The notes under the pieces were generated by a model, which saw only the letters and a list, made by a program, of their open reading frames with translations, was not told the DNA's origin and did not search any database. The position numbers and the translations under genes are program-made. From a virus (taxonomy: Duplodnaviria > Caudoviricetes), in IMG/VR virus record IMGVR_UViG_3300011008_000008: a stretch of DNA of 64,000 nt. One strand, written 5' to 3'. Positions 10,994-61,955 of the stretch are shown piece after piece. Each line of letters begins with the position of its first letter. Position 1 is the first letter of the stretch.

Positions 10994-12223
10994 CTACCGC
11001 GAGACGTATTGAGTCATGGTATTGTTGGCCTTGCGCAGATCATTTTTGTCAACATGGGTATATGTCCTTAACAGCATGCGCTCGTCCTTATGCCCCATGA
11101 TTTCCATTGCCGTCCTTATCGGCACACCGGCATTTGACATATTCGTTGCATAAGTGTGTCTACCAACATAGGGCGTCATTCCATATACATCAATTGTCTT
11201 TTTAATTCTGTTCCACATGTTCCGGGTAACAGATTCAGACGTGACATGTTCCCCATCATTGCCAATAATATATCCAACACTCTTGAACCGTTCGAGATAT
11301 TCATTGAGCCTTGGGTCTATAGGAACTTGCCTTAAACTTTCTTCTGTCTTGGTTTCACCAACGTCCGGCATTCCATTAACGAATACGAGATCACGGCGTA
11401 CATGAATCATCTTTTCATCGAAATCAATATCCTCCCATTTCAATCCATATATCTCACATGGGCGCAGACAAGTGAACATCAAGAACGCCATTAGTAATAT
11501 AGCATTGTCCTCCGTTAGATCAGGGATATGATCTATAATGTCAACCTGTTCGTCATGCGTCAACGGCTTTCGTTCTTCAATTTCTTTCTGTGACGGATTG
11601 CAGATGCGGTCTGAATCCATCGGGTTTCTGTCGATATGTCTGTCCTCATATGCAGATGCAAAAATCGCTTTAAGCATCCACATTATATCACGCACCTGTG
11701 ATTTGCAATAATGCGCCTTTGTCGAAAGATAATTCTGGATGTCAGTTGTCGTTATATCAGAAATATCTTTTCCTTCAAAAGCTGGCCTGATGTGGTTCCT
11801 AAATAACGATGAATCCTTTACCATCGTCTTAGGCCGCAGATTTGGCTTGTGGAACACGTCAAACCAGGTCTGGGCACAATCTTCCCACAAGTGCGGTTCG
11901 TGGGATGACAGAGCCTTTTCTGGGCTTCTGGCGGTGTTCAGAATTGCTGCAATGGAGTTGTGCAATTCTTCTTTACTATTCCCTACCGCCCAGGCAAATA
12001 CAGGAGCGCCACTTTCATTCATTCCAACTCTTACACGTTCCCTAAATTTAGATGCCATGTTTTCTTCTCCTTTCTCATCGGAGAAATCAGAGCTTATAAC
12101 GTTTTCAAGGTTCGATAGACTTTCATCCTTTGTATATTGTAACACATTTTCATTTAAGGATGCAAGCATATTATGTATCTCTTGAACTTGGCTTAATAAT
12201 TTTTCGTTATCTATACTATTCAT
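10994..12223 (-). CDS. int: Tyrosine recombinase (phage integrase)
   Basis: CLRPCEI, GRHTYAT and MGH...YTH catalytic motifs. Confidence 0.93.
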   Translation of the reverse strand: MNSIDNEKLLSQVQEIHNMLASLNENVLQYTKDESLSNLENVISSDFSDEKGEENMASKFRERVRVGMNESGAPVFAWAVGNSKEELHNSIAAILNTARSPEKALSSHEPHLWEDCAQTWFDVFHKPNLRPKTMVKDSSLFRNHIRPAFEGKDISDITTTDIQNYLSTKAHYCKSQVRDIMWMLKAIFASAYEDRHIDRNPMDSDRICNPSQKEIEERKPLTHDEQVDIIDHIPDLTEDNAILLMAFLMFTCLRPCEIYGLKWEDIDFDEKMIHVRRDLVFVNGMPDVGETKTEESLRQVPIDPRLNEYLERFKSVGYIIGNDGEHVTSESVTRNMWNRIKKTIDVYGMTPYVGRHTYATNMSNAGVPIRTAMEIMGHKDERMLLRTYTHVDKNDLRKANNTMTQYVSR

Positions 12224-33829: not shown

Positions 33830-34114
33830 TTAGTCACTCTCCTTCGATTTATAGAGCCGTTCAAGGGCCATTTCAAAAGCCCCGATACCAGAGAAACAAC
33901 TACATACTTTCAGGTTATCAAATAAATAAGGCATAGCATCATATAGATTCTCAAATATCTTTTCAAGCACACCAACACAGATTGAGTTTCCCGCTTGTTT
34001 ATATAGTTGGCTGTTGCTTACCCCAGCATTCTTTGCCCTATCAAATGCCCAATCCGGGAAATCCATCAATCTCCAACATTCCCGTGGGGTAAGTTTCCTA
34101 ATTCTGTATTCCAT
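33830..34114 (-). CDS. C5 DNA methyltransferase small subunit (motifs IX-X then motif I)
   Basis: RKLTPRECWRLMDF, QLYKQAGNS, then LKVCSCFSGIGAFE. Confidence 0.85.
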   Translation of the reverse strand: MEYRIRKLTPRECWRLMDFPDWAFDRAKNAGVSNSQLYKQAGNSICVGVLEKIFENLYDAMPYLFDNLKVCSCFSGIGAFEMALERLYKSKESD

Positions 34115-35073
34115 TATTGCAACTCGCACCTTTCTCAAATATGCAATTAATAATTATAATTGGTTGCCTTGCTCCGCCCGCTGGATTTGAAACTAAGGTC
34201 GGTGATAGTCCATTAGGATCATAAACCCTATATGCAGTAGGACTGTCCCATACTTTTGACTTAGCTATATTACCTATTTCCATTATTGTCTTTTCTACTT
34301 TTACATTTCTCATACACAACAATCAGCGGCAATCTGCCCCCCCCCGCCACAGGTATTCAACGTTGGAGAAACACCCTGGTCATTATACACTCTGTTTACA
34401 GATGGATTGTCCCAAGCGCTTTTCTTTGCCAAACTTCCAATCTGTATTACTTTACTAATACCGTTCAATTACTAATTGTCTCCTGTGCTTTTTTATGTAT
34501 TCTTCAAAGCTGGTTCCTTTTGCGTAGTTTGCATCAATACAGTAGGAGGTTTTATTACATAACTCATATCTATAATCATGATATTGGTCTTTACTCCCAG
34601 CGATGCTGTCAGAGTAGGAGCCACTCCCCCCCCCACTCGCAGAATACACTACATTGGATTGATGCTTGCCAGTTCCTTTATCAATGAATCCAATTTCATT
34701 TACCGATTTCATCTAAGACTCCATCATCTAATATTTCAAGTATTAAGTTGTCTTTCGTAACAGTTGTCAAAGAATTTGTGTACCCCCCCCCTAATATTCC
34801 CTGGTTCTAATCGCTGGCGATTATCTTCTCCTCGCCCGCGCATGGCAACGCATATTTGCTTTAGCAAAACGATCATATTATTATTCATATCCGGTTTCAA
34901 TTACTCCGTTCATTGGTTGATTTCCAAATCCTTTATAATCTCTTGCAAGACAAGTATTTGCAATATTTGAAACCCCATTAAATCTACCACACTGTTCAGA
35001 AAATAAACCAGTTACTTGCTTTCTATCAAGGTGTCCCATCTGTGATTTACATCCAGGCTTCCTCGCCCCCCCC
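34098..35073 (-). other. Array of about 7 C5-MTase target-recognition modules on small overlapping ORFs, four containing G8-G9 tracts
   Basis: Modules such as NTCLARDYKG, AMRGR...NSLTTVTKDN, VYS...APTL, CIDANYAKG and two RVY...SPTL; poly-C on + strand at 34337-45, 34626-34, 34783-91 and 35066-73. Confidence 0.75.
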
Positions 35074-35817
35074 GCGAACGGTGTGCGAGGTTTCGTTTTC
35101 AAGCTTGCCACTCAAAACAAGTTCTTCGATTAGCTCTTTTGCCCTTGGAGTATTAATATAATACTTCTCGTCAACGCTATTCTCAAGAACGTCACTCATT
35201 CGCACGTCGCTTTCAATCGGCTCCGGAAACTTGAATAATCCATTGTCAATATCTTTGCGAATAATAATCACATAAACGCGCTCTCTGTTTTGAGGAATCT
35301 CATAATCTTTTGCATTGAGCACTTTATAATATGTATTATATCCATATTCATTTAGTTCATCTATAAACATTTGGAATGTTTGTTTGAACTTCTTGCCTAC
35401 AATGTTTTTCACATTCTCATAGATTGCCCATTTGGGCTTGTTGGCACGAATCAAGCGCAGCCATTCTACAAGTAACGAACTTCGTGTTTTATCAAGAGAC
35501 CCGTTGCTACACTTAGGACAACGATCTCTTTGATCAAAATGAACAGTCAAAGGATTATACTCATAACCGCATTTTCTACACACCCATCTGCTACCGCTTT
35601 GTTTACCGGCAATTGAAAAGTCCTGACATGGTGAACCTCCACAAATCATATTAAAGTAATTCATATTGTCAGCATTGACTTTTGTGATATCACCTAAGTT
35701 CTTATCCGGAGATTCATCATATATTGCGCAATAACTCTTTGTCGCAAACTTATCAAGTTCGCAAAAATTTACCAGTTCAAATCCTCTGTTTTTTGAATCG
35801 AAACTTTTATTTTCCAA
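35047..35817 (-). CDS. C5 DNA methyltransferase catalytic subunit (motifs II-VIII, no motif I), ending at a G8 tract
   Basis: CELDK, GDI, GSPCQDFS, YENV and PQNRERVY motifs with an inserted zinc ribbon. Confidence 0.9.
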   Translation of the reverse strand: MENKSFDSKNRGFELVNFCELDKFATKSYCAIYDESPDKNLGDITKVNADNMNYFNMICGGSPCQDFSIAGKQSGSRWVCRKCGYEYNPLTVHFDQRDRCPKCSNGSLDKTRSSLLVEWLRLIRANKPKWAIYENVKNIVGKKFKQTFQMFIDELNEYGYNTYYKVLNAKDYEIPQNRERVYVIIIRKDIDNGLFKFPEPIESDVRMSDVLENSVDEKYYINTPRAKELIEELVLSGKLENETSHTVRGGGEEAWM

Positions 35818-35935
35818 AGTTAGTATTCCTTCCTAAAATACAGCGTATTTAAAAACACAATCTTTATGATTTGAACTTTTATCATTCTGGAAGCCCTCTA
35901 TTTTAGATTGTTTTTAGAATGATAAAAGTTTCGTT

Positions 35936-37135
35936 TTATTCATACCTATATAGCCCAGGCATGATCTCATTACACATGTCAAAGACTTTGCCCATGCCTA
36001 AACCTTCCTTGCTTGGAACCCAGATTTTCTTCGGATTCCAATTAATCCATCCCATTTCATCCGGCTCCATACTTGCCGTTGGATCGTAAGCAGGATTATC
36101 TACCCATTGTCCACCACCAATACAATACTCATATTGTCTCGGATGTGTTCTTGCAAGCATTTGGAATCTTGTTTCTCCCTTTTCAAGATGAAAACCAAAT
36201 CCACAATACACACATCCTGTCCTTTGACATCCACTGCATTTCCATTTACAACCATTCGGCATTCCTGCGCCATTGGGTATAACAATTTCACCCTGCTTAT
36301 TGACAATATTAATCGTGCCATATGGTTCAGCGATCTCTATATTTTTTAGCTTGATATACGTTAGAATATCCTGCTCTGTCCAAAATGACATCGGTTGACT
36401 TGTGGCATCATTACTATTAAAAGCATTGCATCCGTGCTTTATCCACGCCTGTTTTCTCATGCGACTTTCTTCTGCCAATGTTCCAATATATGGTCTTGCT
36501 CCAGTATCCTTCTGATACCTTTTAACAACATTCTTCTTCATAATATTGCAACAATAATGAGAAATCATTACGGGCAATTCGCGGGCGATAGGTAGCCATT
36601 TTTCTTTGTTGAATATTGTATTCTCGCCTAATTGCTCTTTTACATTGCATAAACAAGCTCTGCGCCAGTTATGCCACTTTCCTTTCGAGGCTTGATCGCC
36701 CCCCCCGCCGTTATGTGTGACTGGTTTAATTCTTCGTGCATAGTAAATACACTCAGCTGTTTCTTTACTGATCAGCGGATAACCATACTCAGAGAGTGTT
36801 TGCTTGAAATTTTTCTTAGGATATAGCGTAATTACATTATCAAATTTCTTTACAAACCTCTGCAATGCTGGAAATTCAAGACCGGTATTTGAAAATACTG
36901 CAGGAACACCGGGAAACAACGATCTCACAAGATATAATAAAACCGTACTATCTTTCCCTCCAGAAAAACTAACATATACATTCCCATTGTAATGATGATA
37001 CCATTCTATTATTCTTGCCGCCGTTATACCGATCTTACGTTCAAGTGGTAATGCTTGTAGTTCCTTTAATCGCTCTGCATCGTGTATCAATCCATCAGCT
37101 GATATCCTATCGACTTGATCATCAGTTAATATCAA
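35936..37135 (-). CDS. PAPS-reductase-family protein with internal G8 tract
   Basis: SFSGGKDS, CC..MKK, P..FWTEQD and RTGC..C motifs; TTG start with GGAGG RBS. Confidence 0.85.
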   Translation of the reverse strand: MILTDDQVDRISADGLIHDAERLKELQALPLERKIGITAARIIEWYHHYNGNVYVSFSGGKDSTVLLYLVRSLFPGVPAVFSNTGLEFPALQRFVKKFDNVITLYPKKNFKQTLSEYGYPLISKETAECIYYARRIKPVTHNGGGGDQASKGKWHNWRRACLCNVKEQLGENTIFNKEKWLPIARELPVMISHYCCNIMKKNVVKRYQKDTGARPYIGTLAEESRMRKQAWIKHGCNAFNSNDATSQPMSFWTEQDILTYIKLKNIEIAEPYGTINIVNKQGEIVIPNGAGMPNGCKWKCSGCQRTGCVYCGFGFHLEKGETRFQMLARTHPRQYEYCIGGGQWVDNPAYDPTASMEPDEMGWINWNPKKIWVPSKEGLGMGKVFDMCNEIMPGLYRYE

Positions 37136-37595
37136 TTTTTGTATTCCCTCCAACTTTATTATCTTTATATATAACAACCATACTTGGAAACGGTGCTGAA
37201 TTGTTACTATTGCCAAACTTCAATCTACCACGTACAAATCTAATTTCTGCTTTACCCAATATGTAATCATGAAACCATTTTGTATCTGTTCTCGCTGGCA
37301 ATAACATAACAATCAACTGCCCACGCAAGCTTTCCTCATATGCCTTTTTTACCCACAAGCCAATTTCTCTGCCATAGGGAGGATTACAGAATACCCCCCC
37401 CGCAGGAACAACCCAGGGCTGAGATAGGCCATCAATCTCTTTTGAATAGTAATTCACACACTTATGATTTGTTGAATCTGCCGCAGCATCCAGCGTAAAA
37501 TGGAACTCTGCATTTAGTTCATCGAAAAAATCTTGTGGTGTAGCCCACTGATCCGTTTTGCTGGAAAACATCACATCTGTATTTATAGCCATCAC
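37122..37595 (-). CDS. Phage N6-adenine DNA methyltransferase with internal G8 tract
   Basis: WATPQ, LDAA and FCNPPYG motifs; paralog of 12759-13265. Confidence 0.9.
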   Translation of the reverse strand: MMAINTDVMFSSKTDQWATPQDFFDELNAEFHFTLDAAADSTNHKCVNYYSKEIDGLSQPWVVPAGGVFCNPPYGREIGLWVKKAYEESLRGQLIVMLLPARTDTKWFHDYILGKAEIRFVRGRLKFGNSNNSAPFPSMVVIYKDNKVGGNTKIDIN

Positions 37596-37601
37596 TCCTG
37601 A

Positions 37602-38555
37602 TTATTCAACTTTAACACCTATAAACTCCAATGCCTCTTTCATGCCAAGCCCCCCCTGTGACCAAGGCCGCATACAATAATCCCATAGTTTCGGATGTGT
37701 TTGCTTTAGTCTTTGAAACCTATTTGGTTCTTTTTCTCTATGACAGCCAAATCCGCAGAAAACACAGCCCGTCCTATCACATCCAGTAGTACAAAATCTC
37801 CCGTCATTGTCTTGAACAATATCCCCATAAACCGAAGCATAATTAAGATTATATCGCTTTATATATTCGAGTACGTCTTGCTCAGTCCAGAATGACATAG
37901 GTTGTGAAGTTGGCCTAATCCCGTCAAAAGCATTACAACCTTTCTTGCGCCACTCTGTTTTGCGAAGCTGACTTTCGCAAGCCATAGTTGCAATAATCGG
38001 GTGCAAACCTGTTTCTTTTTCAAACTTCTTAGCGGGTTTCTTTTTCATAATATTACAGCACTTATGGCTTATTGGAATATCACTGTCCCTTAATTCCTTC
38101 CACTTCGCCATAGAAAACCTGTTTTTATACTTCTTGTTATACTCGCTGTTTGGATCAAATCTGGCAACCGTATATCCATCCGGCTTTTGCCTGGACTCAT
38201 ATATTTTCTGTGCGACCTCTTTGCTGATCAAAGGATAGCCATATGTTTGAATGACTTTCCTAAAGCTCATTTCCGGGGTTAGCCGTATAACATTTGGAAC
38301 CGTCTTTACAAACTGCCTTATCTCTGGATATTCAAGCCCGGTATCTATAAAAACTGCCGGAATATCTGGATTAATCTTTCTAACAATATCAAGCAGAACT
38401 GTACTATCCTTACCTCCACTAAAGCTAACATAGACTTGGTTTTCATATCTTGCACAATATTCAATAATTCTCGTTTGTGTTCTAAGTATCTTTTGCCCCA
38501 ATGACCATGACTGCATGATCTTCAAATCTTCGTTCGTAAATTTCACACCGACCAC
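37602..38555 (-). CDS. PAPS-reductase-family protein (second paralog)
   Basis: SFSGGKDS, CCNIMKK and RTGCVFC motifs. Confidence 0.85.
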   Translation of the reverse strand: MVGVKFTNEDLKIMQSWSLGQKILRTQTRIIEYCARYENQVYVSFSGGKDSTVLLDIVRKINPDIPAVFIDTGLEYPEIRQFVKTVPNVIRLTPEMSFRKVIQTYGYPLISKEVAQKIYESRQKPDGYTVARFDPNSEYNKKYKNRFSMAKWKELRDSDIPISHKCCNIMKKKPAKKFEKETGLHPIIATMACESQLRKTEWRKKGCNAFDGIRPTSQPMSFWTEQDVLEYIKRYNLNYASVYGDIVQDNDGRFCTTGCDRTGCVFCGFGCHREKEPNRFQRLKQTHPKLWDYCMRPWSQGGLGMKEALEFIGVKVE

Positions 38556-60740: not shown

Positions 60741-61955
60741 TTATCTAAGCTCAACAAGGTATTTAATCGTGCATTGTTCTTCTTTATAAACAATGATCTC
60801 GTCATTTCTTAGCATACTTCCAGCATGCGCGTGGAGACAATTTGCTCCAGGGCAAAGCTTTTGAAGTTCAGAATAATTAAGCCTATAAAACTTACCATCA
60901 AAAGAATAAACATTATAAGATTTGCCATAAGCGACGTTCATCAAAGCCATAAAACCAGAATTGGATTTACCTCTTGCCCAATAGCTACCGGAAATACTTG
61001 TATACCCTAATGACTTCCTGGCTTTAGGTGCATAATAAATGCCATAGCCGAACATTTTACCATTGATAATAGCATTGGTCGGCCTCAATAACAAACCATT
61101 CTGTATAATCGACCACCAGTTTTCATTGCGTGACCCATGAAATAGCAGCCTTATATCTTTAATATCGTTTTCTTTGACATACTTTTCAAAACGTTCTTGC
61201 GTTTTTAGATTCTTTACGCGCCATGCCCTATAAAGCATATCCGAACAACTGCCGAGAGCAACCTTGATTGTCGCAATATCATCTGAGTCACATTCTTCAA
61301 ATTCTAAACCGAGTGTTTCAAGAATAGTATGTTCACTCTTGGTTTCGCCGCCATCATCATTATCAACAAAAATCTTCTTCTCAACAACCTGACCGGCCAT
61401 GACATCAAGCAGCTCTTGCTCTCTATGAATGATCTTGCCAAATTCATCTGCACTCTTTGCAATATGATTTGATACCGAACCCATCCTTCTCGGAATGGTT
61501 GTGAACAGCCTTGTCAGTTCTTGGTTAAACTCACTGACAGTTTGAATAGAAATCAATCCATTGATAATCTCTTGCGCCTCGTCCACCATAGATTGAGTTA
61601 CTTTGTTGGATGAAATAGTATAGTTTGCTTCAATTGCGGCGTGCGCCATTTCCTGTAAGCGCCTTACTATATTGGCGATGTTAGGATTATCAATTTCCTT
61701 ATAACCAGATTTTTCCTTTGGCTTTTCTGCGATGAGATCTCGAATCAATTCGGTCTGATCAACATAACCCTTCTTGATTTTTTCTCTGTACTTTGCTTCA
61801 AATTGCCGCTTATTATAGCGTCTGGATTGTGAACCGCTGCCGATGCGACCATATTCCGCAGTCCACATTTCCCCTTCTGGGATCATATCATAATATTTAT
61901 TATGGTTTGCACCGGCAGTTACCATTACTAAATGCTTAGGAGAATACTCAATCAT
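60741..61955 (-). CDS. WGR + PARP-type ADP-ribosyltransferase
   Basis: NKYY...YGRIG (WGR); FHGS, GKMFGYGIYYA and NDEIIVY (H-Y-E triad). Confidence 0.9.
   Translation of the reverse strand: MIEYSPKHLVMVTAGANHNKYYDMIPEGEMWTAEYGRIGSGSQSRRYNKRQFEAKYREKIKKGYVDQTELIRDLIAEKPKEKSGYKEIDNPNIANIVRRLQEMAHAAIEANYTISSNKVTQSMVDEAQEIINGLISIQTVSEFNQELTRLFTTIPRRMGSVSNHIAKSADEFGKIIHREQELLDVMAGQVVEKKIFVDNDDGGETKSEHTILETLGLEFEECDSDDIATIKVALGSCSDMLYRAWRVKNLKTQERFEKYVKENDIKDIRLLFHGSRNENWWSIIQNGLLLRPTNAIINGKMFGYGIYYAPKARKSLGYTSISGSYWARGKSNSGFMALMNVAYGKSYNVYSFDGKFYRLNYSELQKLCPGANCLHAHAGSMLRNDEIIVYKEEQCTIKYLVELR

Follow-up and report, generated by a model that had tools for sequence, protein, structure and literature searches.

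Several Bacillus phages (SPR, phi3T, rho11s and SPbeta) encode multispecific C5-cytosine DNA methyltransferases (C5-MTases), known from the work of the Trautner laboratory and mentioned in PMC8936443, in which one core carries several tandem target recognition domains (TRDs) with different targets. These enzymes are single polypeptides with the motif order I-X and are constitutive. Here, we analyze a locus on the minus strand (positions 35817-33830) of a 64,000-nt stretch of viral DNA (Caudoviricetes; IMG/VR record IMGVR_UViG_3300011008_000008), referred to as the window, in which the core is instead permuted and split, and the TRDs lie in different frames and open reading frames (ORFs) chosen by runs of G. 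Single-chain relatives of the locus have 3-6 TRDs in one frame. In our view, the locus is likely to represent a multispecific phage C5-MTase that has become a contingency (phase-variable) system, with G runs choosing the TRDs and an invertible start-codon cassette (inverton) as a second switch. M.EcoHK31I, a C5-MTase that requires a second small polypeptide from an alternative frame, provides a further likeness, as a small overlapping-frame ORF supplies the missing part in trans; in that enzyme, however, the part supplied is a conserved motif rather than a TRD, and it is not known to be switchable.

Permuted or divided C5-MTase cores have been described in other arrangements. M.BssHII, M.Alw26I and M2.Eco31I (motifs IX-X before I-VIII) and the plant DRM enzymes (VI-X before I-V) share with the present locus a motif X directly followed by motif I, but here the break separates motif I from motif II, the chain is additionally divided into two pieces, and the system appears phase-variable. 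M.AquI is a two-subunit C5-MTase split in the variable region that keeps motif I on its N-terminal subunit (PMC5944983, PMC3404938), whereas here motif I lies at the C-terminus of the second subunit, beta. M.MpeI and M.SssI have been split or permuted by engineering, and of the resulting M.MpeI forms cp35 is reported to be active and the split pair [280-61]+[62-279] to be active and partially protective (PMC5944983, PMC3404938). These two engineered forms appear to be the nearest analogues of a topology with motifs II-VIII on one chain and IX-X-I on the other; in our reading, the position given in the name cp35 suggests a new N-terminus after motif I. A break between motifs I and II had not been found in nature by the 2018 REBASE survey (PMC5944983, PMC3404938). 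The II-VIII / IX-X-I split is a natural C5-MTase topology unseen in that survey, and a comparable form that the same study engineered was reported to be active.

The proposed run-length switching resembles that of phasevarions, in which changes in homopolymer or repeat length switch expression reversibly; the genes concerned are Type III mod genes or Type I hsdS genes, the latter with simple repeats or invertons and with hsdS recombination swapping TRDs. The known cases toggle a whole methyltransferase or shuffle hsdS, whereas here several runs pick TRDs in overlapping frames, in addition to a start-codon inverton. Poly-G contingency loci of phages have been described for the receptor-binding genes of Campylobacter Fletchervirus in connection with bet-hedging, and a poly-G run was noted, but not studied, in a Bordetella phage methylase gene (bioRxiv 10.1101/2025.10.21.683753). 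A literature search of incomplete coverage yielded no description of run-selected overlapping-frame TRDs, of the II-VIII / IX-X-I topology or of a start-codon inverton in a phage methylase.

The window is part of a ~153 kb genome of a large phage and carries genes for DNA polymerase, ribonucleotide reductase, DnaB-like helicase, RNA ligase and polynucleotide kinase. Three-frame translation of the locus places the C5-MTase core on two ORFs, alpha and beta, with seven short TRD modules in staggered frames between them, four of which carry G8-G9 runs. A first-pass annotation, made by a model from the sequence alone, had proposed a split C5-MTase with about seven TRD modules, and both this translation and the matches to PF00145 bear it out. 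Subunit alpha (256 amino acids (aa); 35047-35817; PF00145, 1.7e-45) comprises motifs II-VIII, including the catalytic PCQ, ENV and QNRER sequences, and the first part of the small domain. Motif I (FxGxG) is absent from alpha and from the sequence upstream of it. Motifs IV (PCQ Cys), VI (ENV) and VIII (QxRxR) all reside in alpha and are invariant in 66 homologs. A phmmer comparison using the alpha homolog P0014 aligned alpha 15-79 to M.HhaI 32-93 and alpha 112-253 to M.HhaI 94-230; as the alignment ends at M.HhaI 230, alpha stops where the M.HhaI recognition loops start. The first G run, termed switch 1, is positioned after the entire alpha core, and the present end of alpha, five codons past this run, represents its OFF state. 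Alpha residues ~78-110 (~35490-35585) form a four-cysteine zinc-ribbon insert (CxxC...CxxC) after motif IV, in the catalytic-loop region, with weak Pfam matches to HypA and Zn_ribbon_8; this insert is invariant in 66 homologs and absent in the two loci L008 and L009.

Subunit beta (94 aa; 33830-34114, or to 34138) matches PF00145 positions 270-322 and presents the motifs in the order IX, X and then motif I (FxGxG) at its C-terminus. Its motif I aligns weakly to M.HhaI 12-29, and the beta profile matches the X-I junction region of DRM structures. Homologs of beta exist both as bare (~100 aa) and as TRD-fused (136-208 aa) forms, and an internal Met with a GGAG site upstream is retained even in the fused ones. 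In place of the canonical I-X order in one polypeptide, the locus thus shows the order II-VIII / TRDs / IX-X-I on at least two ORFs, which makes it a permuted, split variant of the C5-MTase family (PF00145). An AlphaFold2 model of a single-chain relative (the L009 ORF rather than the window pieces) adopts a C5-MTase fold with a predicted template modeling score (pTM) of 0.78, its C-terminal motif I strand and helix being modeled at a predicted local distance difference test score (pLDDT) of 85-97; the best Foldseek match of this model is M.HhaI (E 9e-18), followed by M.MpeI and M.HaeIII. A search of INPHARED phage DNA returned short 70-76% matches to ordinary methylase genes alone and no close isolate.

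The modules follow alpha on the same strand. Switch 1 is a G8 run (35066-35073) with three states: it is OFF at present, reads module A at G9 and reads module B at G7 or G10. Module A (35012-35065) supplies a short TRD tail from the -1 frame and is closed by a stop of its own; both the module and this stop are conserved in 7 loci. Module A overlaps the linker of module B (34881-35065), which in the +1 frame passes across module A into an ARDYKG-type TRD and ends a few codons after this core. Alpha forms with module B ON (~305-312 aa) are seen in many clusters. Module C (AMRGR type; 34696-34900), a separate ORF over the module B stop, is split by a G9 run (34783-34791) and is OFF, G8 being required for its reading; in L006, a single-chain relative, a module of this type lies in frame. 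The D/E mini-ORF (34455-34712), a stand-alone frame of 85 aa called as a gene in public assemblies, consists of a shared N-terminal part, a G9 run (34626-34634) and module E, which is ON, and its alternative frame holds module D (34493-34625), for which G8 is needed. Module F' (34270-34468), an HhaI-like TRD with a TTG start, is OFF because its G9 run (34337-34345) is out of frame, and it likewise needs G8. Module G (34098-34313), a 71-aa ORF without a G run, is cut off from F' and beta by insertions. These window-specific insertions of 19 nt and 22 nt, which detach F' and G from beta, are absent in the closest relatives, and in relatives L081-L085 and L088 module F', module G and beta share one reading frame (P0004, 201 aa, and a 208-aa form). 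The frame consequences that the first-pass annotation had drawn for all four tracts, as well as its tract-free last module, are correct; it had overlooked the two insertions, the start-codon inverton and the run-free single-chain relatives described below.

The fused module G and beta of P0004 align to M.HhaI 238-321 and M.MpeI 307-388, module G matching the TRD loops of these two enzymes. Each TRD module thus corresponds approximately to M.HhaI 231-272. The G runs fall at the Gly-Gly(-Gly) loop of the TRD unit, and at the junctions B/C, C/D and E/F' the stop and the start overlap. A Pfam search of the free modules gave zero matches, the variable region not being modeled by Pfam. In the present state of the window, alpha is ON but carries neither module A nor module B, modules C and F' are OFF, and E, G and beta are ON; the modules ON in the window consensus are E and G only, both of them free peptides. 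The possibility that the modules are silent cassettes for recombination was rejected, since all of them point in the same direction and have their own starts, without flanking repeats.

The runs are not scattered over the window. All seven G/C runs of at least six bases in its 64 kb fall within 34337-37656 (3.3 kb), with G on the coding strand in every case; the approximate P for this clustering is 1e-7, and ~1.7 runs of at least seven bases are expected across the whole window. Elsewhere in the window GGG is the rarest Gly codon (12.8%), and the spelling GGGGGN is used for 3 of the 57 Gly-Gly cases outside the region vs. 6 of the 15 inside.

Relatives were gathered in a protein-guided search of viral contigs and in subsequent look-ups of proteins and contigs, yielding at least 63 loci with the permuted layout (~57 non-redundant). 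For censuses of the two subunits we used the 120 best alpha clusters (65-77% identity) and the 120 best beta clusters: none of the former has an N-terminal motif I, and 102 of the latter show IX-X-I by pattern. The layout is kept in more than 100 lineages. Across the 63 loci, runs of at least six bases occur at 1.07 per kb inside the locus vs. 0.08 per kb in the flanks, a 14-fold enrichment, and always as G on the coding strand. By class, 41 loci are fragmented and carry runs and 17 are run-free single ORFs; the mixed classes comprise 4 fragmented loci that lack runs and 1 single ORF that has one (Fisher 1e-10). This is not a count of independent events, as the groups are probably clades. The 17 single-ORF loci span ~440-560 residues from motif II to the stop, with 3-6 TRDs in one frame and a longest G run of 4. 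They hold the same module types (B, E, F, H and K'), which supports reading the modules as real TRD units. Run-free relatives moreover encode the same Gly-Gly motifs with G runs of no more than 4 bases, so the G runs are not a coding by-product.

Further features were seen among the relatives. A module L (DDYN type) stands right after beta motif I in six loci (L001 6639-6824, L003 ~1880-2006, L002, L004, L005 and L008); it lies behind a G5-G6 run in most of them, with none in L008, and L003 has it in the frame of beta, the other loci in a different frame. A short conserved peptide (NF.NPQ-like) closes many beta chains just ahead of module L. Two alpha homologs, P0028 and P0094 (393 and 389 aa), have precomputed Pfam Hint and intein-splicing domains, which suggests an intein inside their methyltransferase core. 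L020 contains a head-to-tail fusion of two methylase genes, in which motif X of the first continues in frame (~4866) into motifs I and II of the second; such a fusion could plausibly have led to the X-I junction seen in the permuted family.

Natural variation in run length was compared between assemblies from different samples. L087 and L088 are 99.6% identical over 1.8 kb and differ by two indels only, both in G runs; at switch 1, module A terminates L087 (G8), whereas module B terminates L088 and L089 (G9). Five samples contributed contigs L081-L085, which are 0-2 substitutions apart and in which the D/E mini-ORF run is G8 in L081 and L084 (E-ON) vs. G9 in L082, L083 and L085 (OFF), such that each state was found in at least two independent samples. 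Four further near-identical pairs behave in the same way, and G runs account for all frameshifting indels that separate near-identical loci within the locus. Among L081-L085, the sole non-G indel is a one-base T-run indel (L081 1935 vs. L082 and L083), which splits the neighboring RlaP-like nucleotidyltransferase gene in two of the five contigs. Among the 120 alpha clusters, switch 1 endings are ~40 OFF, 38 A and 24-30 B frame, i.e., about one third each.

The overlapping frames are under purifying selection. At loci where A is mostly out of frame, the ratio of nonsynonymous to synonymous polymorphism (pN/pS) in the A/B overlap is 0.15 for the A frame, 0.56 for the B frame and 5.7 for the OFF frame; on account of the value of 0.15, module A is maintained by selection though the assembled state seldom reads it. 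The stops after A and a few codons after B are conserved among loci of 51-69% protein identity, and the modules are otherwise stop-free. The switching by independent G runs proposed in the first-pass annotation is accordingly met with in nature, as polymorphism turns A to B and E to OFF; tract lengths do vary between near-identical contigs of related phages, and the boundaries and stops between modules, followed across many lineages, are kept rather than randomly decayed.

A second variable element lies at the start of alpha. The candidate inverton (35796-35936, minus strand) is bounded by 15-nt inverted repeat arms at 35922-35936 and 35796-35810, 93% complementary, and the 111-nt segment between them holds the alpha Shine-Dalgarno site (35827-35834) and TTG start (35815-35817). 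The window cassette is in the ON orientation. In L087 (~1925-2090), both arms are kept and the inner segment is inverted, leaving alpha without a start. An exact cassette inversion distinguishes L090 (1654-1794) from L091 (1656-1796), which are 99.8% identical in the locus; there, 12-nt inverted repeats bound the alpha ribosome site and ATG. Both orientations are known from this pair and from the window vs. L087, rather than from the window's own lineage. A tyrosine recombinase ORF of the Phage_integrase family (10994-12223, minus strand) could encode an integrase or the cassette invertase.

These observations can be combined into one scheme. The circularly permuted, split core would be provided by alpha (II-VIII and the start of the small domain) and beta (IX-X-I), each with its own start and always translatable, and the short TRD modules between them would be placed on the alpha C-terminus, on the beta N-terminus or in small separate ORFs. 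G runs in or just before the Gly-Gly loop codons would slip during replication, a one-base change shifting the frame; the frame at switch 1 would choose A, B or nothing, that of the mini-ORF D, E or nothing, and the other modules would be turned ON or OFF. The invertible 111-nt cassette would serve as a master ON/OFF switch for alpha. A population would then be a mixture of methylation specificities that hedges protection from host restriction against exposure to methylation-dependent restriction. In this scheme one genotype gives rise to many methylomes, several homopolymer switches and a start-codon inverton choosing recognition modules for one core, and it would explain how large phages hedge between hosts that differ in their restriction systems and hosts whose nucleases are methylation-dependent. 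Thousands of clusters in metagenomes from the gut and elsewhere make this a large family, and automatic gene calling yields hypothetical mini-proteins and 'truncated' methylases from these loci, which calls for caution in annotation.

The choice of frame might instead be made mainly at the level of RNA or the ribosome, by transcriptional slippage or -1/+1 frameshifting, so that every genome makes all isoforms and the differences in DNA length are a by-product. Runs of 8-9 identical bases are known slippage sites of RNA polymerase, short-run loci (G5 in L002, L004 and L005) still hold both frames intact, and the overlapping stop/start junctions indicate tight translational coupling. Yet the DNA length differences are seen directly and alter the predicted product, and the roughly 1:1:1 genomic states fit DNA switching; a structure that stimulates frameshifting was not found, although none was sought. 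We regard choice at the RNA or ribosome level as a rather unlikely main mode; the two mechanisms are mutually compatible. Far less room is left for homopolymer sequencing or assembly errors in a gene that is truly one continuous ORF. All data are metagenome assemblies, and one G8/G9 run differs in length between two assemblies of the same phage; no run-length combination, however, gives one ORF, each run-length state recurs across independent samples, breaks occur at short G5 runs too, and stops and alternative frames are conserved, which together render this account highly improbable. A continuous ORF restored by correcting run lengths was rejected, as A and B overlap in different frames and the junctions have stops in all frames.

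Mutational decay of a multispecific methyltransferase gene, with G runs collecting frameshifts and the mini-ORFs being debris, finds its arguments in the window itself: compared with the closest relatives, it has non-run lesions (the 19- and 22-nt insertions and the lost ATG of F'). L004 is without a switch 1 run and has a stop in the B linker, and about two thirds of the within-module sites across relatives, tallied by eye, are out of frame. Against decay stand the pN/pS of 0.15 of an out-of-frame module A, the A and B stops conserved at 51-69% identity in modules otherwise stop-free, the layout kept by more than 100 lineages with core pieces that always have their own starts, and the run-free relatives that write the same Gly-Gly with short G runs. 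We therefore judge decay to be improbable, though less so than sequencing error. Some of the same facts, together with others, nevertheless weigh against phase variation at this locus. In L002 and L004, broken frames are kept with runs of no more than 6 bases (switch 1: G5 or none), including the L004 stop in the B linker, a pattern resembling a locked or decaying state in certain lineages. In the window consensus, no TRD is covalently joined to either core piece, and if free TRDs are inactive, the window copy yields no active enzyme; the insertions between F', G and beta may be damage, and F' is without an ATG. Finally, heterogeneity within a population is deduced from differences between assemblies, and the link between runs and fragmentation is not phylogenetically independent.

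Phase variation being the preferred reading, the question arises in which form the modules act. The first-pass annotation had supposed separate, independently switchable TRD peptides; the switching part of this proposal holds, but in most relatives the switched TRDs are fused to the alpha C-terminus or the beta N-terminus, and only some (D/E, K') are stand-alone ORFs. D/E-type stand-alone ORFs form at least 25 homologous clusters of 82-91 aa, in which the N-terminal part and the E part are conserved and the out-of-frame linker is not; D-ON forms of this mini-ORF also exist. At many loci, including run-free single-chain ones, the methylase gene is followed by ORFs that consist of TRDs only; those at L124 1617-2138, L166 5093-5305, L094 5618-5839, L011 6806-7120 and L001 6811-7020 (K', C-type and further modules) overlap its end and are read in a different frame. 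The one in L124 has three modules and no catalytic motif, and that in L011 lies behind a methylase of canonical order. Module K' is found in three settings: in the canonical place (L138), in fusion with the alpha N-terminus (P0074, P0093) and in an ORF of its own behind beta.

It is conceivable, at a little under an even chance in our estimation, that the TRD modules are autonomous specificity subunits for the C5-MTase core, as HsdS is for Type I enzymes. They would then work fused to alpha or beta at the N- or C-terminus (at the beta C-terminus, after motif I) or free at 60-170 aa, docking onto the incomplete small domain of alpha and probably completing its beta-sheet, and phage populations would assemble specificity combinatorially from independently switched peptides. 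This idea is compatible with the occurrence of the same module types in all fusion positions and free, with the presence of TRD-only ORFs behind the gene even where the single-chain relative is non-variable, and with the present state of the window, in which free modules alone are ON. A complex prediction of the E mini-protein with alpha and beta scored 0.44 (best control 0.22), with contact agreement across runs of at least 18% and a pLDDT of ~31 for the E partner. Of 80 solved complexes, 58 attain the score mark applied, as do 2 of 110 mismatched pairs, with both of these mismatches, and only 7 of those 80 solved complexes, at 0.60 or below; the prediction was counted neither for nor against. 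If free TRD peptides do act in trans, C5-MTases gain a Type-I-like exchangeable specificity subunit, and such TRDs would make up a compact toolkit for programmable methylation.

Neighboring modification genes carry G runs as well. A PAPS-reductase-like gene (35936-37216) contains an in-frame G8 run at 36699-36706, a Dam-type adenine methyltransferase gene (37122-37595) an in-frame G8 run at 37394-37401, and a second PAPS-reductase-like gene a G7 run at 37650-37656, all on the minus strand. In L086, a second public assembly of the same phage, the run at 36699-36706 is G9 and splits the gene into 155 and 201 aa, and it is the sole difference to the window over 8.7 kb. Given these runs and the L086 difference, the entire DNA-modification island appears phase-variable. 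At a distance from the island, the window also encodes a PARP-catalytic-domain protein with a WGR domain (60741-61955, minus strand).

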